A stretch of 64,000 bases of DNA, from positions 434,001 to 498,000 of the forward strand of contig CM039008.1 in the NCBI GenBank assembly GCA_017499595.2, in the 5' to 3' direction. A model generated the notes under the pieces. The model worked only from the letters and a program-made list of their open reading frames with translations. It was not told where the DNA came from and ran no database searches. Of this stretch, positions 1,499 through 52,220 are shown piece after piece. A program made the translations under genes and the position numbers. Origin of the DNA: Psilocybe cubensis. Its lineage: Eukaryota. Position 1 is the stretch's first letter; every line of letters begins with the position of its first letter.

Positions 1499-1603
1499 AC
1501 TCGTTACCTCGAATGAAATAAAGCTGTTTTTCTCTCCTTTGCTATTCCCACCCGCTGGGTTGGTTTCAAATCTCGCTCATTTCTAATATTTCCTGATTTT
1601 GCA

Positions 1604-9720: not shown

Positions 9721-10857
9721 CGTGGGTAAACTCCTCAGGGTCGCAGACGCACACGGACCTATGTTCCGTCATCTGGAGACTAGAACCGTGTCAATACTTG
9801 TTTTTGGAAAGATATTAACTTGTACATACCTCGGGAACATACTTTCATGCCTTCAGGAGGATGGCTCTAGGATGTATTGGTGAACAACTGCAAGATAAAA
9901 AGGTCAGAATAAGCTGGTACAATGCACAGAGAGTACATACCAAAAACACAATGTCTGCACCCTCAGAAGCGCCCATGTGGCAGTCATATTGTAGCAAAAC
10001 TATTGAAAAAGGTCAGAAAAAGTGGAGGAACATCATGGAAAGACTTACAGAGTAGAGGGGACAGCAGAATGGAAAAGTCGAAAGCAAGGCAGCCGTGAAC
10101 TCCTGGAAATCAACTTTTAGTTTTTTGTTTGGCAGTACCACCATGCGCAAACATACCGAAAGGGAGGTCAACTTGGCTTCAGACACAACCACAACCATGA
10201 AAAGGCCAGGATACGGCCAGAAAGACACCCAGCATTATGGGCGCACATTGGTGGGTCCTCTCATTTGTACAAGCCTTTATATACTCATTTTCTGCCAAGA
10301 TATTACATGAATTGTTAGGTTTTGTTGACGCGTCGAGCATACGCGCCGCTGCGTTCAACAATCTTTGTTGATTCAAGGTACATTCTCTGCGCGTTTGAAG
10401 GTATGTTTTATTTCTCTCCGGTTGAACAGTACGCTATGTTGACGTTATCGGGTATGTTTGACTCCATTTTTTTCATTAGCTCCGGCACTTGATTGACTGA
10501 CGACTTCCTCACAAAAGATTTTAATGTAAGTTCTCTTTGCACAATTTTATTGGATTCATATTCCACTTCTCCATTTATCGACAGTAACGACGCGAATACG
10601 AACACTGCAACAGGACGCACGCTGCAAAAAATTGAAACCGGAGGGCGGCATCAATGGTCAGGGTAGCATTTGTTTGAATAATCGTACGTTGCCGATTCCC
10701 CGAGTCTCCGTGCTATCCTGACAAACCTGAATTTGCTGGCAATCAGAATCTTACCCTGACTCTTCTGTTTCACCCACCACCACGTCTTTTCCCCTCTCCA
10801 AATTCATCCCCTCACTTCCACATTTTCTCCCCATTTTCACGGAGGATTGGATACACA

Positions 10858-17123: not shown

Positions 17124-20087
17124 GTGTTGTTCTTGAAGGTTTTCGCGTCTATGCCTGAGCAAGGTCAACAAACACGTCGTCCTCCTCGCTGCTTATAGTG
17201 AAAAGGTTAGACACTCGTGAGTCATACGCACCATTGAATTTACGGTCGTGTGGCAATGCGAAGGGATTGGCACCCTGGCGGATTGGTTTTCCCAAATGAT
17301 TTGCTGCCTCAAATAGAAATGCACTGGTTTACATACATGAATTGACAGCGATAAGTATGTATCGGCAGTTGACTTACCCTTCCATTGCTTCGAATCCCAA
17401 ATAGACGCTCATTTGCATCATTCAATCATCTGGGAAAGTTAGTTTGGAAGGACCGAGGTTCGGATACGTCTCTGACGGATTCCCTGTGAATAGAAACTCA
17501 ATAGACATGTAATTGGGTGCTATTTGCATGTTTAGAGCTGCGCCAATACGCACCTACACTTCCGAGTAGCATTGTGGCGGCCAGTCGAAACGAGAACTTT
17601 TGAAAGTTGACGCCCCTTTTCAATTCTTGAGTCATCTTAAGTATGCCGAATGATGGCCGATAAAAATATTTCATTTACCGCGATGGCCGAGCATCTCACC
17701 AGGGTAATATCAGGATACAGTGGCTTGCGGAGTCCTGTTGTTCTTCCTGATGGCTTTTCTCAACTTCAGAATCTATTCCCTCGAATACCTCTCTCCTCCT
17801 TGATAGATTCCGACTGTGGCACCAATTAAATGCTCTAGGATCATCCGGTGCAGACACCTCTCTCGACTCAGCTCGCGCCTCGCTCTCCACCCGCAAACAT
17901 TTACTCGCATTCCAAACCGCCATTGAACGTGCCCCCTTCCCTGTAATTGCTGCAATTCACGGTCATTGTATCGTTGGTTCACGAGCTTACGTATACCGCT
18001 CGAGTCTTCTCATCGGACGAGGCTGGGGCTAGTTTCTCGCGTCGTTCTGCCTCTAAAAGGGAATTTTCTGGTGAGATGAGGGTCGTTTAAGTGTGTTTAG
18101 ATGGTGAAATCTATTTATATCACAAAAAAACAGCCTAGTTCATACATTCCAACACCTTCAATTTATCGTACAAGCAGAGGTTAGCCCCGCCCGAAGGCCA
18201 GTGCGGGGCGTAACAGGTCTATCTACTACGGAAAGTGCTTACCTCTCTCTCCGAACACCTACTAACCTGACACGTCACGCATAGGTGCTGCTCCTAGCAC
18301 TGGCAGAGTGGGCTTTGCTGTTGCGTAAGTGATGCGCAAAGACAAACGTCGATACATTGTGGAAAGGCTGGTTGCGGCTGGATACAAGTTCACGGTCCCG
18401 CGTGGCCATACGGGTGTGCGGATTGGTGAAGAGTAGGCGTCGAAATGCACGTTGCAGCTCAGTCGGTGGCATACACAGAGTGGGCTTGCGCACCAACACA
18501 TGTGCAGATCGGTGTAGCGTCGTCAGCCAAGGTTACAAGGGAATGACATGGTGGGGACAATATCAGATGGGTGGCCAAGGACACTTGAATCAGGTAAGAG
18601 TACATGCGCCGCGTGCGGGTCGGCGGACGTCAACTCATCCCTAGCAGTCCCCTTGTGCATGCACTCCTGCGCCTCTGTTTACTGCTACGTTGCCTTGTCG
18701 GACATCGATGTAGAGCAGAATGTTATTGGGGATATAGGGCAAAAGGACATGGGTTGGCAGGCGTTGATACTGTGCATCACAGCATCCCCGGCACCTCTGG
18801 TCCGTGCGACGTCCCTACTCGTTCTTGCGCAACTCGGCGGATGGCAATACCACGCATAAATGCAGATTGCGCAGCTCGGCGGACATCGATATAGAGTGTC
18901 GGGGCATTGGCGTGGCGGGTGTCAACACATCCCTGGCCCTGGGCATTGGCGAACCATGGGGTGGCGGGCGTAGATGTCTGTTGGTCGGCGGGTGTCGATA
19001 TATAGCGTCAACGCGCCCCACCCCGGAAGTCGATGAAGGGTGTCGAGGCAGAGTCCATCCCTCCTCCATGCTGGTCGGCGGACGTCAATACATGGCGTCA
19101 ACGCATCCCCACCACCGGAACTCGATACAGAGTGTCGACGCCTAGTCGACGCCTCCACTAACAAGGCCCCGACACCTCCCCACCACGAGTATCGGCTGAA
19201 CGTGCTGGTCGGCGGACGTCGATACATGGCGTCAGCGCATCCCACCACCGGAAGTTGATACATCGTGTCGAGGTAGAGTCCATTCCCGGCATCACTCGAG
19301 GCTGAATGTGTTGGTCGGCGGACGTCGATACATGGCGTCAGCGCATTCCCGGAAGTCGATGCAGCGTGTCGAGGCAGAGTCCATCCCCGACACCACCCCA
19401 CCTCGAGTCTGGGCTGAATGTACTGGTCGGCGGACGTCGATACATCGTGTCCACGCGTCCCCACCACCGGAAGTCTACGTCACGTCAAACGGCACCTCCC
19501 CACCTCAAGTGTCGGCTGAATGTGTTGGTCGGCGGGCGTCAATACATAGCGTTAACGCGTCCCCAGGACCGGAAGTTGATACGTCGCGTCAAGGCAGAGT
19601 CAACGCCTCCACTAACGCATGAACGCTGCCTCGAGACCACCCCACCTCGAGTGTCGGGTAGATGAGCTGGTCGGCGGGCATCGATATATAGTGTCAACGC
19701 AAACGCGACACATCTCCCGTCGTGAACTCATACCGCCGGGCGTCGATATATCGTGTTCGCGCATCCGTGGGTAAACTCCTCAGGGTCGCAGACGCGCACG
19801 GACCTATGTTCCGTCATCTGGAGACTAGAACTGTGTCAATAGTTGTTTTTGGAAAGATATTAACTTGTACATACCTCGGGAACATACTTTCATGCCTTCA
19901 GGAGGATGGCTCTAGGATGTATTGGTGAACAACTGCAAGATAAAAAGGTCAGAATAAGCTAATACAATGCACAGAGAGTACATACCAAAAATACAACGTC
20001 TGCACCCTCAGAAGCGCCCATGTGGCAGTCATATTGTAGCAAAACTATTGAAAAAGGTCAGAAAAAGTGGAGGAACATCATGGAAAG

Positions 20088-20537
20088 TGTCAGGGTTTCT
20101 CCAGTTTCCCCTCTTTATCTTCACAGAATTATCTTATCCTTTCATTATCTTATCAATTATCTGATTAGATAGTTTATTTCTTTCATCACAGCCTTCTTGC
20201 TCCACTTCTTTCTAGTAAATTCTATATGATTCCTAGTCTTACTCATCCTTTTTCTATATGATGTCACTTTTATTCTTTAACCTTCCTTTATGATGTAATG
20301 TAGGGAATATTCTAGAATAGCTGTAGAGTATAAATACTGGACTTGTAGGTAGCTGTAGCTTCAGCTTCAATCTCTTAGGATATCCACTATCATTGGTGTG
20401 ATCTCTTAGAACCATTGAATCTCTCTCACTCTCTTATTCTCTCTTTGCTCTCTTACTCTCCCTCTGCTCTCTCTCTCTCTCTCTTGCTTAATCTTTGTTG
20501 GTGGCCTTGTCACACTGATTATAGTGTTGCCCTGACA
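20088..20537 (+). repeat. 5' LTR of element 1
   Basis: Direct repeat of 26027-26476 with no difference seen by eye; TATAAATA at 20329-20336. Confidence 0.95.
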
Positions 20538-20539
20538 GA

Positions 20540-20550
20540 AGATTGAAGCT
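20540..20550 (+). promoter_or_regulatory. Self-priming primer-binding site of element 1
   Basis: AGATTGAAGCT is the exact reverse complement of AGCTTCAATCT (20363-20373), ~30 nt after the LTR TATA box. No TGG tRNA-type PBS is present. Confidence 0.8.
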
Positions 20551-21041
20551 CTCTCAAGACAACTCCACCATCTCTCTTTCAACACCAAACTCTTCACCTC
20601 TTCAACCTCTTCAACACCATTACCTCAACCTTCTTCCTCCACTTTCAACCCACCAACCTCTTCATCAACCTCTTCACCAATCTTCTTACCAATCTCTACA
20701 TCTCCACCAATCTTCAACATCCTCCTCAAGACCTTTCCTCAAGACCTTTCCTCAAGACCTTTGGCTCATCATCTTTCCTACTCTCTGTTGTGTGCTGTGT
20801 GTGAACTTAGTAGATAGGGATACCAACTGTTGGGGCAGACACAGTCCTACTAGTGTTCTGTTTTTGGTGGTCTAGGAAATATCCAGTAACCCTGTGATCC
20901 TAGGTTTAGAGCCCTGAGTGGTGTGACAACTGGGTATCCAGTAGATAGATATTTTTTTAGAATACTTAGTATAGTTTCAAGGGCACTTTCAGTAGATAGC
21001 TTCTCCCACACACACATCAGAGAGCCTACCTACCCCTACCC

Positions 21042-22148
21042 ATGGACATGGACCCCTCCCAATTGCCTCCCACCACTCCTTCTGTGGAAGAGCTCATGCA
21101 TCAGGTCCAGCTCCTTACCCAAGAGTTGAATTTTCTTAGACAGCAGCAGCAGTCATTATCCACTCCACCACACCCTCAGCAACCAGTCAGTCAGTCACCA
21201 TCACCACCACCACCACCACCTGCTGCTCTAGATATTCACTCTTTCCCTACCCCTCATGTTGCCCCTTCCTGTTCACACTCTGCCATTAAAGTCTCACCTC
21301 CAGATCCATTTGATGGTTCTATGGAGAAGGCAGAAAACTTCCTCAGTCAGCTTAAATTATATTTCTATGGGAAAGGGATTACAGATGACTTTCAGAAAGT
21401 TATTTGTGCTCTATCTCATATGAAAGGAGGTACTGCTGGGAAGTGGGCATATGAGAAGACTAAAGTAATAGACAATGCTCAGTCCCAAGAAGGTCTTTGG
21501 GCTGACTTTGTTTATGAATTTAGGGAAGTATTTGCAGATCCAGACCCCTCCAACACAGCTAAGCATAAAATGCACATGCTCAAGCAAGGCAGACAGACTG
21601 CTGATGAGTATGTTGCTAGCTTTAGGGCTCTGATCTCAGATACTGGGTATAATGATGCTGCTTTGGTAGACCAATTCAAGGCTGGGCTTAATGAAAATCT
21701 CAGGAATGCAGTCTATTATGTTCCTGACATGCCCAAAACCTTGGATGGATGGATTAAATGGAGTACCAGGCTAGATAGGCAGTGGAGACAGAGTGAGGCC
21801 TTTACCAAGTCTCTTTCCTCCTCCTCTTCTTCTCCCTTCCTTAAAGCCCCAACTCCCAAGGCTGTTTCTAAGCCTACTCCAAATCCTCCAGTCTTTTCCA
21901 ATAGCAGCTCTAGGACCTTTGGTGCTCAGGCAAAGCAACCAGATGTAGTTCCCATGGAGGTTGACTCTGGATGGAAGTCAGTTAGGCCAATTGTTTGCTT
22001 CAAGTGCAGAAAGCCTGGTCATAAGGCTGTAAACTGCAGGTCATCAGTTAACATCAATGCTATAACCCATGAAGAACTGGCTGACTACTTTGGGAAATTA
22101 ATCTTGGAAGGCAAGGAGCAGAAAGATGAGGAAAAGAAAAATTTTTAG
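21042..22148 (+). CDS. gag: Gag of element 1 (retrotransposon gag domain plus CCHC zinc knuckle)
   Basis: 368-aa ORF with 'PDPFDGS', 'LKQGRQTADEY..F' and 'CFKCRKPGHKAVNC'. Confidence 0.93.
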   Translation: MDMDPSQLPPTTPSVEELMHQVQLLTQELNFLRQQQQSLSTPPHPQQPVSQSPSPPPPPPAALDIHSFPTPHVAPSCSHSAIKVSPPDPFDGSMEKAENFLSQLKLYFYGKGITDDFQKVICALSHMKGGTAGKWAYEKTKVIDNAQSQEGLWADFVYEFREVFADPDPSNTAKHKMHMLKQGRQTADEYVASFRALISDTGYNDAALVDQFKAGLNENLRNAVYYVPDMPKTLDGWIKWSTRLDRQWRQSEAFTKSLSSSSSSPFLKAPTPKAVSKPTPNPPVFSNSSSRTFGAQAKQPDVVPMEVDSGWKSVRPIVCFKCRKPGHKAVNCRSSVNINAITHEELADYFGKLILEGKEQKDEEKKNF

Positions 22149-25100
22149 AAGCACCATTGGTGAAAGACATGTCCCAATGGAATAGATTTAATGTACTAGA
22201 AAATGAAATTGACAGACTTGATCCTCAGTCTTCAGATTCTGGTGCAGAAATCATGTCTTCTTCTTCCTCTCTTTCTACCTTCCCTGAAAAGATCTACATC
22301 CTCAACCATAATCCTAAAACCTCTACCCATTTGTCTGTCATCTTAAAGACAATGGACACAGAGAAAAGGTTATCTGTTGATGCTTTGCTTGATTCTGGAG
22401 CTACTGGCCTCTTTCTGCATTCTGGTTTTGTGAAGTATCATAATCTCAACACAAGGAAACTTCCTAGAGCCATTCCAGTCTATAATGTTGATGGTACTCT
22501 CAACAAGAGTGGCTCTATCCATGAGGAAGTAGACTTAATTATGGTACACAAAAACCATACAGAAAGGGCCACCTTTGCTGTTTGTGACTTGGGAGACAAA
22601 TCTGCTATCATTGGACATACTTGGCTTTGGCACCATAATCCAGATGTTGATTGGAAGACAGGGGATGTCCAGTTTATTAGATGTCCCTCTGACTGCCAAA
22701 TGGAAGCCAAAAGAGCCAGAAGAAAGAGGCAGAGAATAGCTGCAGTCAAAAGGAGGAAACTCCCTCAATTTGATGAAGAAGAAGATGATTCTATTGAAGA
22801 TTCTTCTGATTCTGAGATTGAGCCTGAGGATAGAATTTTTATCTCATACCTTCATCCTCAGAAGCAGTCTATTAATGCTACTTCTACTATGTCTCAAAGA
22901 TTAGCAGAAGAGTCTCATCAGCAAGCTGATTCCCTTAAGAAAACCTTTGAAGAAACTGTTCCTAAGCACTATCATCAGTTTAAAGGTGTTTTTTCAAAGG
23001 AATCTTTTGATAGGCTACCAGACAGAAAGCCTTGGGATCATGCTATTGAGCTGAAACCTGGTTCTGAACCTTACAGATCCAAGATTTATCCTCTTTCTCC
23101 CAATGAACAAAAGGAACTTGATGCCTTTTTAGAGGAAAATCTGAAGTCTGGCAGGATTAGACCCTCCAAGTCACCTATGGCCTCCCCTGTATTCTTTGTC
23201 AAGAAGAAGGATGGATCTCTTAGGCTTGTCCAGGACTATAGGAAACTGAATGAAATGACCATCAAGAACTCCTACCCCCTTCCATTGATTTCTGACATCA
23301 TCACCAAACTCAGCAAAGCCAAATACTTCACCAAACTTGATGTTAGGTGGGGATTTAACAATGTCAGAATCAAAAAGGGAGATGAATGGAAAGCAGCCTT
23401 TAGAACCAATAGAGGGCTGTTTGAACCATTGGTCATGTTCTTTGGTTTAACCAATAGTCCTGCTACCTTCCAAACTATGATGAATGATATCTTTATTGAG
23501 CTCATTGATGGAAATGTTGTCATTGTCTACATGGATGACATTTTAATTTTCACTGAGACTCTTGATCATCATAGAGAGGTAGTCAAGCAAGTTCTGCAAA
23601 TCCTAGAACAGAACAAACTCTACCTTAAAGCAGAGAAATGTGAATTTGAAAAGGAAAAGATTGAATATCTTGGACTAATCATTTCACAAGGCAGGATTGA
23701 GATGGATCCTGTCAAGGTAGAGGGAGTTTCTAAATGGCCTGAACCTGAAAATGTCAAGGATGTCCAATCATTCTTGGGATTTGTTAATTTTTATAGAAGG
23801 TTCATAGAGGATTTTGCAGACATTGCTAAGCCCCTTCATGAATTGACAAAGAAAGGAACAGTCTGGAGATGGAGTCTTAGACAGCAGGAAGCCTTTGACC
23901 AGTTAAAGAAGAAAGTCACTTCTTCACCTGTCTTGATTTTCCCTGATGATAACAAGCCATATAAAGTTGAAGCAGACAGTTCAGATTATGCTACTGGGGC
24001 TGTTTTATCTCAGGAAGGATCAGATGGGAAATGGCATCCTGTAGCCTTTATGTCTAAGAGTCTATCTGAAGTAGAAAGGAATTATGAGATCCATGACAAA
24101 GAGATGCTGGCTATTATCAGAGCACTAGATGAATGGAGACATTATCTTGAAGGAACCCAACATTCCTTTGAGATTTGGACAGACCACAAAAACTTAGAGT
24201 ACTTTATGGTTGCCCAAAAGCTCAGCAGAAGGCAAGCCAGATGGTCACTCTTCCTGTCCAGATTTGATTTTACTCTTCATCATAGGCCTGGTAAAAGATC
24301 TCTTAAGCCAGATGCTTTGTCTAGGAGACCAGATCATAAAAAGGGAGAGAATGATAACCAAAATGTAGTTCTCCTCAAACCTTCCTACTTTAAAATCCAG
24401 GCTCTCAAGCAGGGTCATGCTACCATTACTGGTGCAGAAAATGATCTTCTTAAGAAGATTAGAGAAGCTAAGGAGATGGATGAAAAGGTGGTCAAGGCAG
24501 TTCAGGAGCTCAAGAAATCTTCTACCAAGAAGATTGAAGGACAGGAATGGTCAGAAGAACAAGGCCTTATTCTCTACAGGGGGAAGGTGTATGTTCCCAA
24601 GGACAAAGATCTTAGAAGAAAGATTGTGGAACTGCACCATGATGCCTTCATTGCTGGACATCCAGGGAAATGGAAGACAATTGAGCTAGTCTCTAGGAAT
24701 TATTGGTGGCCAGGAATGTCACATTTTATTGCAGCCTATACCAGAGGTTGTGATAGATGCAACAGAACCAAAACCTTTCCAGCCAAACCTCTTGGCCTTT
24801 TAATTCCTACTGAGATTCCCTCTGATGTCTGGCAATGCATCTCTGTGGACTTTATTATGGGGTTACCAGAATGTCAAGGGTATAATGCCATTATGGTGGT
24901 TGTGGATAGACTTAGTAAAATGATCCACATTATCCCTACTACAGATGAAGTCACTTCTGAAGGGACAGCCAGACTATACAGAGATTATGTCTGGAAACAC
25001 CATGGCTTACCCATTAAAATTCTGTGTGATAGAGGTCCACAGTTTGTCTCAAGGTTTATGAAAGAACTCAACTCAATACTTGGTATCCAGACAGCCTCAT

Positions 25101-26026
25101 CTACAGCCTACCATCCCCAAACTGATGGTCAGACTGAAAGAGTTAACCAAGAAATTGAGCAGTATCTTAGACTCTTTATAAACCATAGACAAGATGATTG
25201 GGTTGAATGGTTAGCTCTAGCTGAATTCTCTTATAACAATAGAGTTCAGGCTTCAACCAGGCAGACACCATTCATGCTCAATAATGGCAGACATCCCAGA
25301 ATGGGCACTGAACCCCTTAGAGATAGTAAAATGGACACTGTGGATACCTTTGTGAAAAATATGGAAGAAGCCAGGAAAGAAGCAGAGTCTGCACTTAGAA
25401 AAGCTGCTGATGATATGGCTAAATTCTATAATAGACACAGAGGTACTCCAACTCAGTACAAAGTTGGGGATTTGGTATGGTTAGATGGCAAGGACCTCAA
25501 AACTGATAGGCCCTCCAAGAAATTGGATGATAAAAGATATGGGCCTTACAAAATTACCAAAGTTATTAGCCCTAATGCCTATGAGCTTAAGCTGCCATCT
25601 ACCATGAAAATCCATCCAGTGTTCAATGTGGTTAAACTTCTACCTTATCACTCAGATATTGTAGGAAGAAAGCCTCCTTCTAGACCACCTCCTGTCATTC
25701 AAGGAGAAAATCCTGAGTGGGAAGTTGAATTTATCAAGGACAGCAGACTTTTTAGAAACAAACTTCAATATTTGGTCAAGTGGAAGAACTATCCTAATGA
25801 AGAATGCACTTGGGAGCCTGCAGAGCATTTGAAAAATGCTTCTAAGGCTATCAAGGACTTCCATGCCAAACATCCTTCAGCACCTAGAAGGATTTCTGCT
25901 GTGACCTTTGATAGACTTTCTTTCACTCCTATTATTAACTTTACTGAACCTCCTCCTCTTCTTAAACCCTCTAAACTAACCCATCCATGTGCACATTGTG
26001 GAAAATGTGCCTTAGAGAGGGGGTGA
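22139..26026 (+). CDS. pol: Pol of element 1 (protease, RT, RNase H, integrase, chromodomain), reached by predicted -1 frameshift
   Basis: LLDSGAT, YMDD, ADSSDYATGAVL, integrase HHCC and core, chromodomain 'EWEVEFI...YLVKWKNYPNEECTWEP'. Slippery heptamer A AAT TTT at 22139-22145 just before the gag stop. Confidence 0.95.
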   Translation, partial: KFLEAPLVKDMSQWNRFNVLENEIDRLDPQSSDSGAEIMSSSSSLSTFPEKIYILNHNPKTSTHLSVILKTMDTEKRLSVDALLDSGATGLFLHSGFVKYHNLNTRKLPRAIPVYNVDGTLNKSGSIHEEVDLIMVHKNHTERATFAVCDLGDKSAIIGHTWLWHHNPDVDWKTGDVQFIRCPSDCQMEAKRARRKRQRIAAVKRRKLPQFDEEEDDSIEDSSDSEIEPEDRIFISYLHPQKQSINATSTMSQRLAEESHQQADSLKKTFEETVPKHYHQFKGVFSKESFDRLPDRKPWDHAIELKPGSEPYRSKIYPLSPNEQKELDAFLEENLKSGRIRPSKSPMASPVFFVKKKDGSLRLVQDYRKLNEMTIKNSYPLPLISDIITKLSKAKYFTKLDVRWGFNNVRIKKGDEWKAAFRTNRGLFEPLVMFFGLTNSPATFQTMMNDIFIELIDGNVVIVYMDDILIFTETLDHHREVVKQVLQILEQNKLYLKAEKCEFEKEKIEYLGLIISQGRIEMDPVKVEGVSKWPEPENVKDVQSFLGFVNFYRRFIEDFADIAKPLHELTKKGTVWRWSLRQQEAFDQLKKKVTSSPVLIFPDDNKPYKVEADSSDYATGAVLSQEGSDGKWHPVAFMSKSLSEVERNYEIHDKEMLAIIRALDEWRHYLEGTQHSFEIWTDHKNLEYFMVAQKLSRRQARWSLFLSRFDFTLHHRPGKRSLKPDALSRRPDHKKGENDNQNVVLLKPSYFKIQALKQGHATITGAENDLLKKIREAKEMDEKVVKAVQELKKSSTKKIEGQEWSEEQGLILYRGKVYVPKDKDLRRKIVELHHDAFIAGHPGKWKTIELVSRNYWWPGMSHFIAAYTRGCDRCNRTKTFPAKPLGLLIPTEIPSDVWQCISVDFIMGLPECQGYNAIMVVVDRLSKMIHIIPTTDEVTSEGTARLYRDYVWKHHGLPIKILCDRGPQFVSRFMKELNSILGIQTASSTAYHPQTDGQTERVNQEIEQYLRLFINHRQDDWVEWLALAEFSYNNRVQASTRQTPFMLNNGRHPRMGTEPLRDSKMDTVDTFVKNMEEARKEAESALRKAADDMAKFYNRHRGTPTQYKVGDLVWLDGKDLKTDRPSKKLDDKRYGPYKITKVISPNAYELKLPSTMKIHPVFNVVKLLPYHSDIVGRKPPSRPPPVIQGENPEWEVEFIKDSRLFRNKLQYLVKWKNYPNEECTWEPAEHLKNASKAIKDFHAKHPSAPRRISAVTFDRLSFTPIINFTEPPPLLKPSKLTHPCAHCGKCALERG

Positions 26027-26476
26027 TGTCAGGGTTTCTCCAGTTTCCCCTCTTTATCTTCACAGAATTATCTTATCCTTTCATTATCTTATCAATTATC
26101 TGATTAGATAGTTTATTTCTTTCATCACAGCCTTCTTGCTCCACTTCTTTCTAGTAAATTCTATATGATTCCTAGTCTTACTCATCCTTTTTCTATATGA
26201 TGTCACTTTTATTCTTTAACCTTCCTTTATGATGTAATGTAGGGAATATTCTAGAATAGCTGTAGAGTATAAATACTGGACTTGTAGGTAGCTGTAGCTT
26301 CAGCTTCAATCTCTTAGGATATCCACTATCATTGGTGTGATCTCTTAGAACCATTGAATCTCTCTCACTCTCTTATTCTCTCTTTGCTCTCTTACTCTCC
26401 CTCTGCTCTCTCTCTCTCTCTCTTGCTTAATCTTTGTTGGTGGCCTTGTCACACTGATTATAGTGTTGCCCTGACA
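26027..26476 (+). repeat. 3' LTR of element 1
   Basis: Follows the PPT, ends CCCTGACA and is followed by GAAAG. Confidence 0.95.
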
Positions 26477-29400
26477 GAAAGACGCCCAGCATTATGGGCG
26501 CACATTGGTGGGTTCTCTCATTTGTACAAGCCTTTATATACTCATTTTCTGCCAAGATATTACATGAATTGTTAGGTTTTGTTGACGCGTCGAGCATACG
26601 CGCTGCGTTCAACAATCTTTGTTGATTCAAGGTACATTCTCTGCGCGTTTGAAGGTATGTTTTATTTCTCTCCGGTTGAACAGTACGCTATGTTGACGTT
26701 ATCGGGTATGTTTGACTCCATTTTTTTCATTAGCTCCGGCACTTGATTGACTGACGACTTCCTCACAAAAGATTTTAATGTAAGTTCTCTTTGCACAATT
26801 TTATTGGATTCATATTCCACTTCTCCATTTATCGACAGTAACGACGCGAATACGAACACTGCAACAGGACGCACGCTGCAAAAAATTGAAACCGGAGGGC
26901 GGCGTCAATGGTCAGGGTAGCATTTGTTTGAATAATCGTACGTTGCCGATTCCCCGAGTCTCCGTGCTATCCTGACAAACCTGAATTTGCTGGCAATCAG
27001 AATCTTACCCTGACTCTTCTGTTTCACCCACCACCACGTCTTTTCCCCTCTCCAAATTCATCCCCTCACTTCCACATTTTCTCCCCATTTTCACGGAGGA
27101 TTGGATACACAGTGAGTATTCTTCAATGGTACAACGTGCAACGTGCTTACAATCTTTCAGGAGCTTTTGAAGCTACGCGTTGCTCCTGCAAACTCTTGTC
27201 CAAGAGTCCGTGCTTACTGGAAGCCACAGACGATTTCCCGTGTCAGACACGAACAGGCGCCTCATGTCTGCGACTCCCCATCGTATTGGACTCTCAGACT
27301 ACGCAATACCGAACCGTCAGGGAAAGTTTACCAGAGGTCAAGGCGATTCAGGTTGTGAGTGGAGACTCTTCACGACAAGCAGAACTCACATTTTTGTCTG
27401 ACAGTGTGCACGCGAACGCTGCTTTGTGAGTATCCTCTTGTCCTCAATTTTATTTGTCTGCTAACTTTATTGCAGCTTCAGAGAACCGTGAAGACTTGAC
27501 GCAGTGTTCACGCGCACTCGTCCTCAATTCGATATGTCTGCTAAATTGATTGCAGCTTCAGAACCGTAAAGATTTGACGTGATATTGCTGGGACCGGTAG
27601 CTTGTACGTATCCACAATTTAATCCTATGAATAACACTGCATCATCCCTCTTGTTTAGGACATTATCGACCCTACTAACATCGCGTGTAACTCTCCAGAA
27701 ATAACATCGAGGCATTACAATGGAGAATCTTCAGAATTCGGCCGTAGAATTTCCACCACATAACCTTTCCCCCATCCCCCATATCCGCTACTGTCCATTT
27801 CAAACACTTCTCTTGAGTTCCTGGCATGTGGACATCGGCTACATCCTCCCGGCATACGTCAACTGTGATGCTACTTGGGTGGTAAACGTAAAATAGCATT
27901 GGTTGATGCACAAATTTCGGGGTTCAACGAGAAGGTACGGTTATTTCATTTAGGTTCCTTCGCTTCAACTTCATTTTATAAGGTTTCTGTAGTCAGTATC
28001 GAGCTAAATATCGTTAAGCGCCGTGAATTTGTTTTAATATGAATAACGTATTCTGCTCTTTTTTGACTCAACAAAGCTCGATTCAGTCTGGAATAATGTA
28101 TAATTGCTCTAGCTACTACTCAGGGTCCGTAGATAGCTCCAAAATCGACGGAAAAAGTGCTTTGAAATGACATACGGACATGTTCTCCTCGCCTCCTTTA
28201 ACACACTCACCCTCGTTTCCGAGGGCAAAATCGACTGGTAGGGCTTTAGACCTCGGCATCACTTCACTGACAATTAGCACCATACATTTCTGGAAGAGAA
28301 TATGAGGTCATACCGGATACACAAGTCACAAGGCAAACATGCACTCTTCAAGATTAACTATGCCAAATTCGGGTTAATCTGGCAAACGGTCAATGTATTT
28401 CGGCCATGTCAGTGTCTAGTTAGCGTGTGCCAGCTGGAATACACGTACCTGTAAAAAACATGAAGCCCCATTCACGTTTTACGGCAAGACAAAAGTCGCA
28501 CCACATTCATCTCCTCCTCCCCCAAATCACGGATTAACGCATTTCCAAACGTTCGCTGCATCTACTTGACATGTCAGCGCCACATCAATACATCCGGAGA
28601 TATGAAAGGTGAGATGTCGGCACTCTGAATGTCTGTAAAGTTTGGTTGAACATGATTGAACACCGAGTGCTTGGTTCATGCGTACCTGCCCGTTGAACGG
28701 AAAACTGGGATTAATCTGTGCATAACCACTATTAACTCGAGTATGATATTTAATGGTGAGTATAAATAGAGTGTGTATTCGTACCATTTATGAGATTTGG
28801 AGAAGAATTGAGACAGGCATTTGTTAAGCGCCCAAAGCGTCTAAAGAGCAATAACCACAAATTTTGCAGTCACAAATTCATTATATTGTACCAAGTACAT
28901 GAGAGAGTCAATGTAAGTAGTATACCTAAATGATACGCACAGATCAAAGGACATACCACAATGTCAATCAATTTTGTGGAAGAGATAACAAATGAAAACG
29001 GATGCGCATGCATCTTGTTCTCCTGGTTCAGTTCTCCGTTTCCAACGCACCAAACATCTTTTCCTTGCATCTCGGGATAGCATCACGTCATGCTGTCACT
29101 GCTAGAGCAGATGCCGTCAATGTTCATGGAAGATTGGCAGAAATTGTTTGAGTGCGAACATACTTTGAATCGAGGGGACAGGGATGACATACCATGGCGC
29201 TATCGCTCAAATTGCATCTAGTGCGTCATTAACCACTGATTTACATGTATAGATACGGGGAGTATATGAAATTACACAAGAGGTTGAGTGATTTTGACGA
29301 ATATAAAATTTACAATGCACGCACTCATATATTTCTCAAATCCAATGTGTTCGTTTGCAGATGCCGTTTTAACGCCATAGCCACTAATATACCTGTAAAT

Positions 29401-31232: not shown

Positions 31233-33436
31233 TCATGTCCGAGCAATAACCGCCCCAAACCAAAGGAAAACCGCAAATGTAAGAAGTGCTTCGCATTGAA
31301 ACTGGGAATCATTGCCTGGAATATGGTCGAGCAGTAGGCCGACAATGCCCTGGTTGATCAGCGCTACACGATAAGACTCTAATTATCATTAATTTCTGAA
31401 GTGAAACAGAGAGTGCATACCATGGACACCTATGGCAGAAATGGAACTCAGTACTGCTCTTTGAACCCGTTTTTGTGGGTGTTTTATCATATTGGAAAGT
31501 GTGTTTCCGAGTTCAGGACCTAAAAGCATGGGATGCATGCGTTCTATTGCCGATATGAGACGACAATCGGATTATACAAAGCCACAGTACGCACCATTCA
31601 GAGCCAAACATTTGAGTGTAGATCCCTTATCCATCGCAGAGAGAATAAGAGAAGCGTCAATCAACCACTGTCGATGCAGAGGGTTTGTACAATTAGAAAT
31701 CACTTCCGGAATATGATTGGTGAATTCGGCAGGTATCAGAAATCCTGAGCGTATCCGCACATGGATGTGGATGCAAATAATCAATTCAAGAATATCGTCT
31801 TGGAACATATCCCAATTTGACAGGGTCCCTCCCGGTTGCAGAAAAGCTACGAGTGAGCTAGCGCTCCAATTTAAGGAAGAATGGGTGGTCTGGACAAGAG
31901 ACAGCATAACTGTAAGGTATGCTCGAGTTACATCGGAAGAGGTTTCAGTCTTGTCTAGGGAGGATAGAAGCTCCGTGATGTTGCGGGTCAAGACTGGTAA
32001 TGGGTCTGCAATATACAAAGCCTCCTGCAACCTTGACGACATGGGTAGTCCCGCAATGGCACAGACTGGATCATCAAGTTTGAAGGTTCGCGCCAGTGAA
32101 AACAGACCAACGAGGACATCTGTCCTCAATTCGTCTGATGGAGGGTTTGAAACGAGCATGAGATGATATAAAGATGAGAATGTGTCGAAGATGCCCTTTG
32201 TCCATGTCCTACGTAGCTTGGTGGTGGACAAAAGGACATGATCGAGGTGGGTGTAAGAGCTGGTAACTCTCCGCGCCTTACGTCGGCGTTGGCGGGGAGT
32301 GAATACCAAGTGTCCAATTGCATCTGCCAGGAGAATGAGAGGAATAAAGACGCCAGGAATCTAATAAGAGATATGTTGATGTCCTTCATAGAATTCAAAG
32401 ACCATCGCTTACAATTGGCAGCAAGCCAGATATCGGGGTATTAAATGGGGAATTGGGATTGAGAAGCGGGCGAATGCTACATCCTAGGTAGAGGAGCATG
32501 GTGATGGCAATAAGCGTCGTCACAACTACCCCAATTCGCGGGTCGTCCTGAAACAATAAAATGACGAGGCCGCCGAAGAAGAGGTAAAAGGCAATGTGCA
32601 AGGTTATTGGCAGGGCATGTATAACAGCTCGTAGATGTCGCTGGTCGTCGCCGAAGAACCGTCGATGACGATTGCAGGCGTCGATTATAGGCAGTCCAGC
32701 TGATACAGGAATAAATTGGGATACCCACCCTTTCGCCAGGATTGTTCCAAAAGCACCCGTTAAGGCAAAGGTGAGGCTGACGAACCAGAGTCCATTCACC
32801 CATACCAAAGGTGATGAGGGTACAAAGGTTGTTGATAGTAGGGAATTCTGACGAGTTTCCGACGACAAGGTTTGAATGAGGTCTCTGATCAAATTATTCG
32901 TGATAGCCTGAGGGTCTTGTTGGAGATCTTTTCGTGTCTCGATAAGAAAGGCAGTCAAAATGGCAGAAAACAGGCCCGCCTATAAATTGACGTCAGAAAC
33001 AAAATTGTGGAACAAGCAAAACATACAAATATCAAGATGGTATCCAAGTCACAGTTCCATATTCTCATCAACTCTTCGCCTTTTGATTTGGTCAAGTCGA
33101 GGTACATCGACCAGACCTTTGCATCATCTGCTAGGTAGTCCGCGAATGGGTTTCGGAGGTCTGCATTGGAGGTTGCCACGTATTCCCTAGCTGCCGTTTC
33201 AATGGATGCTCTCGATGGTGGCCGGTAGACTAATACGATTGTTGTTATTGGTCTTTTTCAGGCGCATCTGAGGTAAAAAACATACCCTTTGTGTCAGACA
33301 ACCGTGATTCTGCCCTCTCCACGTCGCGGGGAAATGGAAAACGATAAGCAAGCGCTGATAGAGTACTGGTCCCATTCCCTGATTGGATTCTCAGGCACCG
33401 TGCGACAATCTCCCAAAACGACGATTTCGCCTGCAT
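31233..33436 (-). CDS. C-terminally truncated DUF6535 copy 3 (~651 aa)
   Basis: ORFs 31572..32309, 32395..32958 and 32955..33179 are identical to copy 2; same junction stop. Confidence 0.7.
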
Positions 33437-36400: not shown

Positions 36401-39400
36401 TCTAGGATGTATTGGTGAACAACTGCAAGATAAAAAGGTCAGAATAAGCTGGTACAATGCACAGAGAGTACATACCAAAAACACAATGTCTGCACCCTCA
36501 GAAGCGCCCATGTGGCAGTCATATTGTAGCAAAACTATTGAAAAAGGTCAGAAAAAGTGGAGGAACATCATGGAAAGACTTACAGAGTAGAGGGGACAGC
36601 AGAATGGAAAAGTCAAAAGCAAGGCAGCCGTGAACTCCTGGAAATCAACTTTTAGTTTTTTGTTTGGCAGTACCACCATGCGCAAACATACCGAAAGGGA
36701 GGTCAACTTGGCTTCAGACACAACCACAACCATGAAAAGGCCAGGATACGGCCAGAAAGACACCCAGCATTATGGGCGCACATTGGTGGGTCCTCTCATT
36801 TGTACAAGCCTTTATATACTCATTTTCTGCCAAGATATTACATGAATTGTTAGGTTTTGTTGACGCGTCGAGCATACGCGCCGCTGCGTTCAACAATCTT
36901 TGTTGATTCAAGGTACATTCTCTGCGCGTTTGAAGGTATGTTTTATTTCTCTCCGGTTGAACAGTACGCTATGTTGACGTTATCGGGTATGTTTGACTCC
37001 ATTTTTTTCATTAGCTCCGGCACTTGATTGACTGACGACTTCCTCACAAAAGATTTTAATGTAAGTTCTCTTTGCACAATTTTATTGGATTCATATTCCA
37101 CTTCTCCATTTATCGACAGTAACGACGCGAATACGAACACTGCAACAGGACGCACGCTGCAAAAAATTGAAACCGGAGGGCGGCGTCAATGGTCAGGGTA
37201 GCATTTGTTTGAATAATCGTACGTTGCCGATTCCCCGAGTCTCCGTGCTATCCTGACAAACCTGAATTTGCTGGCAATCAGAATCTTACCCTGACTCTTC
37301 TGTTTCACCCACCACCACGTCTTTTCCCCTCTCCAAATTCATCCCCTCACTTCCACATTTTCTCCCCATTTTCACGGAGGATTGGATACACAGTGAGTAT
37401 TCTTCAATGGTACAACGTGCAACGTGCTTACAATCTTTCAGGAGCTTTTGAAGCTACGCGTTGCTCCTGCAAACTCTTGTCCAAGAGTCCGTGCTTACTG
37501 GAAGCCACAGACGATTTCCCGTGTCAGACACGAACAGGCGCCTCATGTCTGCGACTCCCCATCGTATTGGACTCTCAGACTACGCAATACCAAACCGTCA
37601 GGGAAAGTTTACCAGAGGTCAAGGCGATTCAGGTTGTGAGTGGAGACTCTTCACGACAAGCAGAACTCACATTTTTGTCTGATAGTGTGCACGCGAACGC
37701 TGCTTTGTGAGTATCCTCTCGTCCTCAATTTTATTTGTCTGCTAACTTTATTGCAGCTTCAGAGAACCGTGAAGACTTGACGCAGTGTTCACGCGCACTC
37801 GTCCTCAATTCGATATGTCTGCTAAATTGATTGCAGCTTCAGAGAACCGTGAAGATTTGACGTGATATTTCTGGGACCGGTAGCTTGTATGTATCGACTA
37901 ATTGAATTCTATGAATAACACTTGTAACTCTGCTGAAATAGCATCAAGGCATTACAATGGAGAACCTTCAGAATCCGGCTGTAGAATATCCACCACGTAA
38001 CCTTTCCCCCATCCCCCCATATCCGCTACTGTCTATTTCAACCTAGCATGTGGACATCGGCGACATCCTCGCGGCATACGTCAACTGTGATGCTACTCGG
38101 ATGGTAAACGTAAAATAGCATTGGTTGATGCACGAATTTTGGGGTTCAACGAGAAGGTACGGTTATTTCATTTAGGTTCCTTTGCTTCAACTTCATTTTA
38201 TAAGGTTTCTGTAGTCAGTATCGAGCTAAATATCGTTAAGCGCCGTGAATTTGTTTTAATATGAATAACGTATTCTGCTCTTTTTTGACTCGAAAAAGCT
38301 CAAGTCAGTCTGGAATAATCTATAATTGCTCTAGCTACTACTCAGAGTCCGTAGTTAGCTCCACATTCGACGGAAAAAGTGCATTGAAATGACATATGGA
38401 CATGTTCTCCTCGACCCCTTCAGTACACCTACCCTTATTTCCGAGAGTGAAAATCGACTGGGTGAGATATATATCTCAGATTTGCACCACTCAGTAATAG
38501 AACGATACATTTCTGGAAGGGAAAATGAGTTCATACCGGAAGAAGTCACAAGGTCAACACGCACTCGTCAAGAATAACTACGCCAATTTCGGGTTAATCT
38601 GGCAAAAGGTCAATGTATTTCGGCCATTTGAGTGTCTAATTAGCGTGTCCTAGCTGGAATTCACATACCTGTAAAAAGATATGAAGCCCCATTCACGTTT
38701 TACGGCAAGACAAAAGTCGCACCACATTCATCTCCTCCTCCCCCAAATCACGGATTAACGCATTTCCAAACGTTCGCTGCATCTACTTGACATGTCAGCG
38801 CCACATCAATACATCCGGAGATATGAAAGGTGAGATGTCGGCACTCTGAATGTCTGTAAAGTTTGGTTGAACATGATTGAACACCGAGTGCTTGGTTCAT
38901 GCGTACCTGCCCGTTGAACGGAAAACTGGGATTAATCTGTGCATAACCACTATTAACTCGAGTATGATATTTAATGGTGAGTATAAATAGAGTGTGTATT
39001 CGTACCATTTATGAGATTTGGAGAAGAATTGAGACAGGCATTTGTTAAGCGCCCAAAGCGTCTAAAGAGCAATAACCACAAATTTTGCAGTCACAAATTC
39101 ATTATATTGTACCAAGTACATGAGAGAGTCAATGTAAGTAGTATACCTAAATGATACGCACAGATCAAAGGACATACCACAATGTCAATCAATTTTGTGG
39201 AAGAGATAACAAATGAAAACGGATGCGCATGCATCTTGTTCTCCTGGTTCAGTTCTCCGTTTCCAACGCACCAAACATCTTTTCCTTGCATCTCGGGATA
39301 GCATCACGTCATGCTGTCACTGCTAGAGCAGATGCCGTCAATGTTCATGGAAGATTGGCAGAAATTGTTTGAGTGCGAACATACTTTGAATCGAGGGGAC

Positions 39401-45794: not shown

Positions 45795-45967
45795 TGTTAG
45801 AGTTCCCTCTAACGTAGACACACACACGTGCCTGTAGTCACATATCACACAGTATTTGTAGACACACCCGTAGCTACGTAGCCTCAGTTCCTTCTTTGTT
45901 AGCACACCCAACACGTTCTGGTCCTTCGTCTCTCTCTCCCGCCTCGTCTCCGGGTCTCCTCCTAACA
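45795..45967 (+). repeat. 5' LTR of element 2
   Basis: Direct repeat of 52048-52220 with no difference seen by eye. Confidence 0.95.
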
Positions 45968-46514
45968 TCAAGAAGGAACTCTAACACATTCAAAACATCC
46001 TCTCTCATCGCCTTTTGGCATTTCAATACCACCGTTTCCCAAACTGCCTGGACTACCTCGTTCCCCTTCGATCCTGCCCATCCAGCAGGATATCGAAGCC
46101 TGTACCGACACTTGTGACCGCTACTCTTGGCAATTATTTTTTTTGCAAAGAGACCTCTTGTTGCACGAAGAAACCCTGCGTATTGCTTCCAACCAGGGTG
46201 CATCTTTTGATACCCTTCGGCGACTTACTGCTGCTGTTATAGACTGTCAACGGTCAATCTCACATACCAGAGACCTTCTCGCTTCCGCTGAAAGACAGTT
46301 GCGTTACCTACACGACCAGGCTGATCGCGTTCGCGACCTACAAGATTGTCTGGCTACTCTGTCTCGCCGCATTGATAATCTGGCTTTTACCACCTCTCTT
46401 AGCCCTGCTATTTTGTCTGGACTTCACGCCCGCCTTGACGATATTCTCAGCTCTCCTCTCTTCTCCAGGTCCTCTACCCCAGACAGCTTACCTGACCTTG
46501 AACCCTCCGATTAG
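45966..46514 (+). other. ATG-less open frame upstream of gag in element 2, coiled-coil-like
   Basis: The frame of ORF 46143..46514 stays open back to TAA 45963-45965 and contains a heptad-like stretch 'LLASAERQLRYLHDQADRVRDLQDCLATLSRRIDNL'. No in-frame ATG. Confidence 0.4.
45970..45980 (+). promoter_or_regulatory. Self-priming primer-binding site of element 2
   Basis: AAGAAGGAACT is the exact reverse complement of AGTTCCTTCTT (45886-45896) in the LTR; no tRNA-type PBS is present. Confidence 0.8.
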
Positions 46515-46610
46515 AAGCGCATATATTCACCCTTTTGGCGCATACACCCACCCTCTCTGTTTTTTTCTCTTTCCTTTTTTTAATTCGCTTCTCGCTTATC
46601 GTTTGCACTC

Positions 46611-52036: not shown

Positions 52037-52047
52037 GAGGGGGGTGA

Positions 52048-52220
52048 TGTTAGAGTTCCCTCTAACGTAGACACACACACGTGCCTGTAGTCACATATCA
52101 CACAGTATTTGTAGACACACCCGTAGCTACGTAGCCTCAGTTCCTTCTTTGTTAGCACACCCAACACGTTCTGGTCCTTCGTCTCTCTCTCCCGCCTCGT
52201 CTCCGGGTCTCCTCCTAACA
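52048..52220 (+). repeat. 3' LTR of element 2
   Basis: Follows the PPT and is followed by TSD TTGAT. Confidence 0.95.

Follow-up and report, generated by a model that had tools for sequence, protein, structure and literature searches.

Element 1, a retrotransposon in the stretch of Psilocybe cubensis DNA analysed here (64 kb, hereafter the window), falls within an old clade of retrotransposons of agarics (Agaricales); members of this clade are essentially without CpG in their long terminal repeats (LTRs), leader and coding sequence. We lean towards the reading that this old, widespread and still active chromovirus clade has purged all of its CpG, and that the trait is a heritable stealth adaptation kept by selection among copies. 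What is new here is that freedom from CpG is a property of a clade. No description of a CpG-free fungal retrotransposon or clade was found in the literature searched; the supplements of agaric genome papers could contain one.

Element 1 is a young autonomous Ty3/gypsy chromovirus, which shares a host tandem array with a second retrotransposon, element 2. Features are given by position in the window, with plus for the forward strand and o/e for the observed/expected ratio.

4705 to 64000, no strand: host tandem array, units of about 10.1 kb, CpG o/e about 0.95; both elements are inserted in it
20083 to 20087, plus: target-site duplication GAAAG, left copy, a 5-bp flanking direct repeat
20088 to 20537, plus: 5' LTR, 450 bp, TGTCAG...CTGACA, no CpG, 100% identical to 26027-26476
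20329 to 20336, plus: TATA box TATAAATA in U3 of the LTR, 34 nt upstream of the putative transcript start at 20363
20363 to 20373, plus: self-primer arm AGCTTCAATCT, the putative first 11 nt of the transcript, perfect complement of 20540-20550
20538 to 21041, plus: untranslated leader, CT-rich, no CpG
20540 to 20550, plus: predicted primer-binding site AGATTGAAGCT, 2 nt past the LTR end
21042 to 22148, plus: gag, 368 aa, uninterrupted; Ty3 capsid-like, retrotransposon gag and CCHC zinc knuckle domains
22130 to 26026, plus: pol, first ATG at 22169, 1285 aa, uninterrupted; protease motif, reverse transcriptase (RT), RNase H, integrase, SH3 and chromodomain
22139 to 22145, plus: heptamer A_AAT_TTT, putative frameshift site, abutting the gag stop TAG
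26014 to 26026, plus: polypurine tract AGAGAGGGGGTGA, adjoining the 3' LTR
26027 to 26476, plus: 3' LTR, 450 bp, no CpG
26477 to 26481, plus: target-site duplication GAAAG, right copy, flank sequence
45795 to 52220, plus: element 2, a CpG-rich chromovirus, intact; LTRs of about 173-178 bp, 99.4% identical; target-site duplication TTGAT

Between positions 20088 and 26476 (6389 bp, GC 41.0%) there is no CpG, against 267.4 expected from base composition (Poisson log10 P ~ -116); GpC occurs 216 times (o/e 0.81). The span without CpG runs from 20016 to 26482 (6467 bp) and thus matches the borders of the element, and the second-longest CpG-free run in the window measures 161 bp. CpG is absent as well from the 954 non-coding bases of the 5' LTR and leader. 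In the coding sequence all 91 arginine codons are AGA or AGG, none of the codons TCG, ACG, CCG and GCG is used, no codon ending in C is followed by one starting with G, and recoding of the proteins with the codon usage of element 2 produced 266-350 CpG (mean 311, 1000 draws). The flanks have a CpG o/e of 0.95 on the left and 0.97 on the right, and element 2 contains 430 CpG (o/e 1.00). An earlier note, made by eye from the letters alone, had described a 6.4-kb element without CpG at exactly these coordinates, with AGA/AGG arginine codons, uninterrupted reading frames, identical LTRs, and CpG in plenty in the flanks and in element 2; the counts bear out each of these observations, with an o/e far below the roughly 0.95 of the flanks.

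In composition the element also departs from the surrounding DNA in GC content (41% versus 47-48%) and in AG/CT o/e (1.39 versus 0.90-0.91). Its TpG and CpA o/e (1.21 and 1.14) show no deamination excess over the remaining window (1.18 and 1.16), and its TpA o/e is 0.69 versus 0.70 there. A hypermutated relic of the RIP type was considered and rejected, as the frames are open and none of TpA, TpG and CpA is elevated. An artefact of assembly or chemical conversion was likewise rejected: GpC is present at the ratio given above, C makes up 22% of the bases, independent sequencing runs under several organism labels contain 77-93% of the words of element 1, and raw reads cover it evenly along its length.

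The trait extends well beyond this copy. In a comparison of 80 related loci from metagenomes, CpG o/e was 0-0.076 in all 12 with a pol identity of at least 68% and 0.27-1.33 in all 68 with an identity of at most 65% (Fisher p 1.7e-14, for a split that is phylogenetically a single event). Element 1 and these 12 relatives together contain 31 CpG in 60,237 bp versus 2783 expected (o/e 0.011). In an RT-integrase tree of 76 rows, built by a quick method (LG+G4), the 11 CpG-free rows group as a single clade (SH-aLRT 95) nested among CpG-bearing chromoviruses; the trait changes once on this tree, and none of 500 shuffles gave a number as low. Element 1 falls in the clade both by its o/e, below 0.08, and by its placement, with L016 as the nearest row (90% identity). 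Six loci of one sister group show partial depletion (o/e 0.27-0.64), and many related families have kept an o/e of about 1. The earlier note's suggestion of a CpG-free lineage, as opposed to a single copy, is upheld by these 12 of 12 close relatives in one clade. Its assumption of a basidiomycete source agrees with the nearest named proteins to element 1, from Psilocybe cf. subviscida, a species with at least 6 full-length proteins in the closest cluster, and with an open reading frame flanking the element, whose named matches are only Agaricomycete proteins.

Between element 1 and its relatives, dS was 1.5-2.1 for four, 4.0 for L007 and not computable (saturated) for three more, with dN of 0.13-0.23 in the comparisons made; the pol frames were open in all eight relatives compared. 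At locus L033 the first 923 bp, which are flank, contain 35 CpG and the following 3858 bp contain 3, and L006 has 13 CpG inside the element between CpG-dense flanks. The lack of CpG is thus specific to the element in other hosts too.

Assignment of element 1 to Ty3/gypsy follows from direct LTRs (TG...CA) with a short target-site duplication, from a gag with capsid and zinc knuckle, and from the pol order protease, RT, RNase H, integrase (PR-RT-RNase H-IN). The chromodomain (PF00385, pol residues 1184-1233, E 2.5e-15) identifies it as a chromovirus. In gag the Pfam matches were PF19259 (3e-10), PF03732 (3.5e-9) and PF00098 (3.3e-4). Those in pol were RVT_1 (residues 344-505, E 1.1e-37), RT_RNaseH (568-699, 5.3e-39), Integrase_H2C2 (the integrase zinc domain, 812-869, 6.9e-20), rve (889-983, 3.4e-10) and SH3_Tf2-1 (3.7e-18). 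The protease is seen solely as the motif LLDSGATG at pol residues 73-80, read from the translation; no protease Pfam match was obtained in this pol at E<=0.001, and relatives carry PF08284 or PF13975. The identical LTR run is 453 nt long because it includes 3 nt of the flanking repeat. The word GAAAG also occurs in empty units of the host array, and the 181 bp that separate two GAAAG words in other units are missing at the element 1 site, a caveat to reading the flanking pair as a target duplication.

The primer-binding site pairs at 11 of 11 nt with the element's own LTR and not with the 3' end of a tRNA, which suggests that element 1 uses Tf1-like self-priming. The self-primer pair is retained in 5 of the 8 CpG-free relatives searched, one of which (L004) is without sequence upstream of gag; in L003 and L008 one arm of the pair carries A>G and the other T>C. 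Relative to gag, pol lies in the -1 frame, which is open from 22130. Slippery heptamers for -1 frameshifting follow the rule X_XXY_YYZ, and the A_AAT_TTT heptamer is the putative -1 ribosomal frameshift site.

Several observations speak for recent activity. The insertion is absent from a sister unit that is 99.9% identical, and units U2-U5 of the array are 98.3-99.9% identical to one another. In raw DNA reads of run X19 the depth was about 1490 on element 1 versus about 67 on the flanks; the ratio to flank, about 22x, is the solid figure, the flank itself being repeated in the window. At least 99% identity was found in 45,876 of the 70,695 aligned reads, and the loose read ends at the LTR edges agreed with their consensus at only 0.34-0.42, that is, they lead into many different flanks. 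The family is therefore of high copy number and recently inserted. Together with the identical LTRs and open frames, these reads support the recent mobility that the earlier note had proposed. Two further runs, guessed to be RNA but possibly with DNA present, carry no weight here: from X14 came 6 contigs (152-231 nt, depth 2.4-4.5), and from X21 a single contig of 153 nt on the element. Among T>C and A>G variants in the family, 0 of 12 independent ones created a CpG, versus about 24% expected (p 0.037), a weak test that covered 40 of 110 variant places, 24 of those 40 inside element 1. The other array units always supply an empty site for element 1, so that polymorphism of the empty site tells nothing here. 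An rDNA identity of the array was rejected, with 0 Rfam families at the gathering score.

The explanation that we hold to be probable is that copies are under a selection which keeps CpG, the sole target of agaric DNA methylation, out of the lineage. On this account, 5-methylcytosine (5mC) in agarics would lie almost only at CpG and be concentrated on repeats. In Pleurotus 5mC was reported at 4.0% in CpG versus 0.5-0.6% in CHG/CHH, in transposable elements (TEs) and linked to silencing (PMC6191308). In Agaricomycotina TEs an excess of CpG transitions was ascribed to 5mC deamination, with, by that account, no RIP (PMC3318451), and basidiomycetes are reported to carry only a Masc2-like Dnmt1, linked to CpG signatures (PMC4352252). 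Since it contains no CpG, the element could not carry such a mark; the host probably methylates CpG in its repeats, and element 1 is probably unmethylated and expressed. A CpG-free element would thus escape transcriptional silencing linked to methylation, and with it the C-to-T decay to which methylated sites are prone. A copy in which CpG arose would acquire the mark, be silenced or mutate, and so contribute fewer descendants; in this way the active lineage would stay CpG-free, and the proteins would remain intact through synonymous choice (AGR for arginine, NNT before G). What selection acts on would be the absence of CpG itself.

Mutation could in principle produce the same pattern unaided, if full methylation or a CpG-specific repeat hypermutation outpaced CpG gain while selection acted on the proteins only, with no benefit from CpG loss; we consider this unlikely. 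The host's repeat units do show CpG hypermutability, with transitions at 27 of 1018 CpG sites versus 19 of 3394 non-CpG C/G sites (4.7-fold by rate; odds ratio 4.8, p 1.9e-7). The partly depleted sister group resembles a gradient, and CpG-biased C-to-T change has been described in TEs of Tricholoma and other basidiomycetes (PMC6980582, PMC4352252). However, in a neutral simulation CpG o/e fell to 0.30 at 5-fold hypermutability, 0.12 at 20-fold and 0.03 at 60-fold, and the pooled o/e of 0.011 would require CpG decay well over 60 times background, against the 4.7-fold measured. An o/e of about 0.95 in the host array means that methylation-driven decay is mild there; TE copies could be far more methylated than the array, in which case mutational pressure would exceed the measured value. 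Also against mutation alone, neither element 2 in the same array nor the 68 other relatives have been stripped, TpG and CpA show no excess, and the 91 AGR arginine codons would each need a C-to-A transversion if they came from CGR, which is not a deamination product. Mutation pressure alone thus looks too weak for the CpG-free state.

Selection against CpG might instead act on the RNA or cDNA, through a ZAP-like transcript sensor, a CpG-directed cDNA nuclease or deaminase, or a bias of the clade's RT, but this is quite improbable. It would fit a depletion that spans the whole transcript plus the non-transcribed U3, and a trait tied to a clade with one common replication machinery, and ZAP-type CpG sensing has been described in vertebrates (PMC12582503, PMC11670115). 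On the other hand, we know of no CpG-sensing factor at the RNA or cDNA stage in fungi. The strand asymmetry of single-strand cDNA deamination is missing (CpA 1.14 versus TpG 1.21), and CpG is missing also from U3, which lies upstream of the putative transcript start; even so, in each cycle all bases of an LTR element go through an RNA stage. Least credible, and disfavoured, is a compositional heritage, that is, horizontal transfer from a CpG-poor donor genome without re-equilibration so far. The composition unlike that of the surroundings would suit it, but the clade has stayed CpG-free through synonymous saturation in at least three different settings with CpG-rich flanks, namely the window, L033 and L006. 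To our knowledge no bulk genome has a CpG o/e near 0.01.

Selection among copies would account for this persistence. The earlier note had pictured a lineage that has run out of targets, a wording that suggests passive exhaustion by mutation, and this wording is not borne out: synonymous sites are saturated yet free of CpG, and a hypermutability of only 4.7-fold would leave a neutral o/e of about 0.3, not 0, which points to active maintenance. Element 2, whose gag (394 aa) and pol (1336 aa) frames are open and whose pol shares 48% identity with the element 1 pol, is equally intact and young while keeping its CpG, so CpG loss is unnecessary for recent transposition in this genome. CpG loss can therefore bring no absolute benefit, since CpG-rich elements have also moved recently.

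CpG methylation is the main heritable mark on transposons in fungi, animals and plants. The usual argument over whether transposons can escape it draws on partial depletion, for which mutation is a sufficient explanation; element 1 and its diverged clade, at about 1% of expected CpG in CpG-normal genomes, offer an all-or-nothing case. If the reading is right, the methylation-based genome defence of mushrooms can be escaped outright, and hosts would need some other means, such as RNAi or H3K9 methylation, to restrain such elements, if they restrain them at all. Elements 1 and 2 in the same array form a natural matched pair for the effects of CpG methylation on fungal retrotransposons, namely on silencing, mutation load and persistence through meiosis. 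The results also suggest a simple way to screen genomes for further escape lineages, namely by the CpG o/e of each TE family, and promoters and coding sequences without CpG, taken from such elements, could be of use in mushroom genetics as parts that resist silencing.

Among the closest known systems, element 1 resembles Tf1 and Tf2 of Schizosaccharomyces pombe and the sushi-like chromoviruses, with the same PR-RT-RH-IN order, a C-terminal chromodomain, a Tf2-type SH3 domain, a 5-bp target duplication and a predicted 11-nt primer-binding site directed at its own transcript start instead of a tRNA. Named homologues are annotated as 'Tf2 155 kDa protein type 1-like'. Tf1 is a single open reading frame, whereas in element 1 gag and pol are split by the putative -1 frameshift; the relative L003 also has one frame. 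We know of no CpG avoidance in Tf1/Tf2, and S. pombe is not known to have 5mC.

In ZAP evasion, vertebrate RNA viruses and retroviruses likewise are genetic parasites that lower CpG synonymously against a CpG-reading defence, but there the sensor is a vertebrate RNA-binding protein and suppression is partial. In Microbotryum (Pucciniomycotina), Horns et al. reported a paucity of TpCpG where C-to-T change would be nonsynonymous (PMC3318451); there too the sequence of a basidiomycete TE lineage seems to have been moulded by avoidance of a host mutation target centred on CpG. That paucity is partial and position-specific, in a subphylum with RIP-like hypermutation, while in element 1 CpG is absent at all positions, in Agaricomycotina, for which the same source gives no RIP-like process. 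The ONSEN element (ATCOPIA78) of Arabidopsis thaliana is also an LTR retrotransposon whose promoter is reported to be without symmetric methylation sites, and its authors argued that maintenance methylation and heterochromatin reinforcement are thereby circumvented (PMC3907296). ONSEN is a plant Ty1/copia element, and the absence of CG and CHG is reported in the passages on it (PMC3907296) for the LTR only, which at 28% GC would be expected to hold few sites anyway. In element 1, by contrast, CpG is absent from all 6389 bp, of which 4.9 kb are coding, and the trait is common to a diverged clade.

Element 1, the retrotransposon at window positions 20088-26476 (6389 bp, GC 41.0%), contains no CpG dinucleotide where 267.4 are expected from its base composition, and the Poisson probability of such a zero is ~10^-116. 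GpC occurs 216 times, an observed/expected ratio (o/e) of 0.81. The CpG-free run extends from 20016 to 26482, so that its limits coincide with the borders of the element; the second-longest such run in the 64-kb window is 161 bp. An earlier note had recorded this absence by eye, with the same coordinates, and had proposed that the CpG o/e be computed. It is 0 in element 1 vs 0.95 in the left and 0.97 in the right flank, and the flanks are indeed CpG-rich, as the note had stated. The parts of element 1, and the position of a second retrotransposon in the window (element 2), are as follows.

Features of element 1 and element 2 (window positions)
20088-20537: 5' LTR of element 1, 450 bp, TGTCAG...CTGACA ends, 100% identical to the 3' LTR
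26027-26476: 3' LTR of element 1, 450 bp, TGTCAG...CTGACA ends, 100% identical to the 5' LTR
20083-20087 and 26477-26481: GAAAG at both ends of element 1, apparent target-site duplication
20329: TATAAATA, inside the LTR
20363-20373: AGCTTCAATCT, 34 nt downstream of TATAAATA
20540-20550: AGATTGAAGCT, perfect complement of AGCTTCAATCT, 2 nt past the LTR at the expected primer-binding-site position
21042-22148: gag, 368 aa, matching Ty3_capsid, Retrotrans_gag and zf-CCHC
open from 22130: pol, -1 frame of gag, 1285 aa from the first ATG, with LLDSGATG protease motif, RVT_1, RNase H, integrase zinc and core domains, Tf2-type SH3 and chromodomain
adjoining the 3' LTR: polypurine tract AGAGAGGGGGTGA
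45795-52220: element 2, intact chromovirus, target-site duplication TTGAT, gag 394 aa, pol 1336 aa

With LTRs, gag, the pol domains, a priming site and a polypurine tract all there, element 1 is a complete, autonomous Ty3/gypsy chromovirus. The AGCTTCAATCT/AGATTGAAGCT pair has the same layout as in Tf1 self-priming and was found in five of eight CpG-free relatives searched. In two of these five, the metagenome loci L003 and L008, each arm of the pair is altered, one by A>G and the other by T>C; L004, one of the three relatives without it, has no sequence upstream of gag. The heptamer A_AAT_TTT (22139-22145) immediately precedes the gag stop, and since it conforms to the slippery-site rule X_XXY_YYZ, pol would be reached from gag by a -1 frameshift.

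All 91 arginine codons of element 1 are AGA or AGG, like those that the earlier note had checked. TCG, ACG, CCG and GCG codons are absent, no C|G falls across a codon boundary, and CpG is likewise missing from the 5' LTR and leader, 954 non-coding bases in all. When the element 1 proteins were recoded with the codon usage of the neighbouring element 2, in keeping with the codon-usage comparison that the note had suggested, 266-350 CpG resulted (mean 311, 1000 draws). Element 2, whose pol shares 48% identity with the element 1 pol, is as CpG-rich as described, with a GC content of 53%, 430 CpG (o/e 1.00), and 116 CGN vs 8 AGR arginine codons. Its LTRs (~173-178 bp) are 99.4% identical. A self-complementary pair lies at its LTR end as well, from which element 2 probably self-primes too.

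The note had further proposed a CpG-free lineage and the collection of family copies. The candidates scored in a protein search included 4375 relatives; the best of these are 84-85% identical, and most are on contigs about as long as one element. At least six full-length proteins from Psilocybe cf. subviscida belong to the closest 90% cluster. A metagenome DNA search, based on an alignment of the element 1 query with 23 of the closest protein matches, confirmed 501 candidates, of which the best 80 were retained. The 12 loci with pol identity of at least 68% have 0, 0, 0, 0, 0, 1, 2, 2, 2, 3, 3 and 14 CpG in the match (o/e 0-0.076, GC 38-47%), and the 68 loci with identity of 65% or less have 33-383 (o/e 0.27-1.33, GC 39-57%). 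Pooling element 1 with the element portions of these 12 loci gives 31 CpG in 60,237 bp vs 2783 expected (o/e 0.011). Depletion ends at the element edge in other hosts too: in L033 the first 923 bp contain 35 CpG and the following 3858 bp only 3, and L006 has CpG-dense flanks and 13 CpG within the element. In a quick-method LG+G4 tree of 76 RT-to-integrase rows (6 of 82 were removed for coverage <60%, including the CpG-free L033 and L041), the 11 CpG-free rows fall into a single clade (SH-aLRT 95) with one state change, and none of 500 label shuffles gave as low a count. This clade, a solid though not final result, is nested inside chromoviruses that do contain CpG; among its neighbouring groups, one shows partial depletion (o/e 0.27-0.64) and a second shows none (0.68-1.09).

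Gag and pol form one ORF of 1690-1698 aa in some CpG-free relatives (L003 at 898-5991, and the protein cluster of the search match P0023) and are separate and overlapping in element 1, L001, L006 and L033, so that the mode of gag-pol expression varies inside the clade. The contigs of L002, L005 and L008 are circularly permuted (pol, LTR, gag), with the ends of L005 identical over 127 bp. Such an order is the assembler product of a multi-copy LTR element, and these contigs are therefore family collapses and no single insertions.

The CpG-free state is old and has been maintained. Relative to element 1, dS is 1.5-2.1 for L001, L002, L005 and L027, 4.0 for L007, and saturated beyond computation for L003, L004 and L006, and dN across these eight relatives is 0.13-0.23 with open pol frames. 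Synonymous sites have thus been fully turned over without CpG persisting, and the proteins are under purifying selection. The observation is thereby confirmed and extended from a single copy to an old clade.

The copy in the window is young. Both elements lie in a host tandem array that runs from 4705 to 64000 in at least five units of ~10.1 kb, of which U2-U5 are 98.3-99.9% identical, with a two-unit block duplicated at 99.5% identity. Within the units lie gene-like minus-strand fragments (e.g. 31572-33257) and a GC-rich block of ~100-140 bp subrepeats (e.g. 19033-19705). An rDNA identity was ruled out, as no Rfam family reaches its gathering score. Both insertions are missing from otherwise 99.5-99.9% identical sister units and are therefore younger than that duplication; with identical LTRs and open frames, this agrees with the recent, intact insertion described in the note. 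The insertion site of element 1 lacks 181 bp that other units (10038-10222, 36573-36757, 53049-53232) have between two GAAAG words, so a deletion between direct repeats of 5 bp coincides with the apparent target-site duplication. Either element 1 entered an already deleted unit variant, or a microhomology deletion came after insertion. The site of element 2 is ~830 bp upstream in unit coordinates, both being in or adjoining the GC-rich block, and this closeness may reflect a shared integration preference. The unique left flank of the window contains an ORF at 270-1211 (313 aa). Its named matches are Agaricomycete proteins only, mostly of Agaricales plus two other Agaricomycete genera, many carrying PF23865 (UniRef name DUF7223), and the best is 39% identical across 97% of the query.

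In X19, a sequencing run whose raw DNA reads carry the family, reads placed at ≥90% likeness gave a depth of ~60-78 in the flanks and ~1310-1730 in the interior of element 1, a ratio of ~22, which is a relative measure of the copy number the note had asked for. Of 70,695 placed reads, 45,876 reach a likeness of at least 99%. Reads at the LTR edges continue into many different sequences (loose-end consensus agreement 0.34-0.42), and 77-93% of the element's 31-mers occur in runs under several organism labels. Together with the identical LTRs and open frames, this makes the family high-copy, young and dispersed. Length variants in X19 include a 13-bp leader deletion at 20723 (590/1409 reads), leader deletions of 104-139 bp in CT-rich repeats (20583-20688), and, in 15 reads, a 1387-bp internal pol deletion (22874-24262) that would mark a non-autonomous derivative.

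How readily CpG mutates in this host can be gauged from the host array. In U2-U5 (11388-64000 minus both elements), singleton transitions affect 27/1018 CpG sites vs 19/3394 non-CpG C/G sites, a 4.7-fold hypermutability by rate (odds ratio 4.8, p 1.9e-7). This is the expected signature of 5mC deamination, and the host therefore probably methylates CpG in the array, whose CpG o/e is still ~0.95 despite it. Mutation pressure alone is the less favoured explanation of the CpG-free clade. Under a simple neutral model, the simulated equilibrium o/e is 0.30 at 5-fold decay over background, 0.12 at 20-fold and 0.03 at 60-fold, so the clade value of 0.011 demands a far higher rate. Moreover, TpG and CpA are not in excess in element 1 (1.21/1.14 vs 1.18/1.16 in the rest of the window), and reaching its AGR codons from CGR would need a transversion and not deamination. 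Neither element 2 nor the 68 other relatives were stripped of CpG. The read variants of the family include 12 independent transitions of the T>C or A>G type, none of which makes a CpG vs ~24% expected (p 0.037; 40/110 variant places covered, 24 inside the element). These patterns favour selection among copies against CpG, short of proof because transposon copies might be methylated far more fully than the array, in which case mutation pressure could exceed 4.7-fold.

In Coprinus, premeiotic repeat methylation is restricted to CpG. For the agaric Pleurotus ostreatus, 5mC is described as nearly confined to CpG (4.0% vs 0.5-0.6% at CHG/CHH), concentrated in transposons and associated with silencing (PMC6191308). 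A CpG transition excess in Agaricomycotina transposons was ascribed to 5mC deamination with no RIP-like process (PMC3318451), and in a further study the basidiomycetes analysed had only a Masc2-like Dnmt1, which was connected with CpG signatures and with a process 'similar to MIP' (PMC4352252). A CpG-free element would offer no substrate to such a system, and a CpG-free master copy, presumably unmethylated and active, could be transcribed from its own LTR. The transcript would self-prime, frameshift into pol and then integrate, perhaps guided by the chromodomain to repeat chromatin such as the host array. Copies gaining CpG would become methylatable, be silenced or decay, and so be lost from the replicating lineage. 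The main objection to any simple account of methylation escape is element 2, which is CpG-rich, intact and equally young; CpG loss is thus one strategy and no requirement.

Among known systems, element 1 shares all structural features tested with Ty3/gypsy chromoviruses with Tf1-like self-priming. In the part of the literature that was searched, no wholly CpG-free retrotransposon or clade was found in fungi or elsewhere. LTR retrotransposons and methylation-site avoidance are already known. Vertebrate viruses are described as suppressing CpG against ZAP, and Microbotryum transposons as TpCpG-poor at nonsynonymous positions under RIP-like hypermutation, a partial effect (PMC3318451). The nearest functional analogue is ONSEN of Arabidopsis, for which the accessible text claims absence of methylation sites in the short AT-rich LTR only, whereas element 1 has zero CpG over its whole length. 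What appears to be new is the degree of the absence, its persistence and its clade-wide spread.
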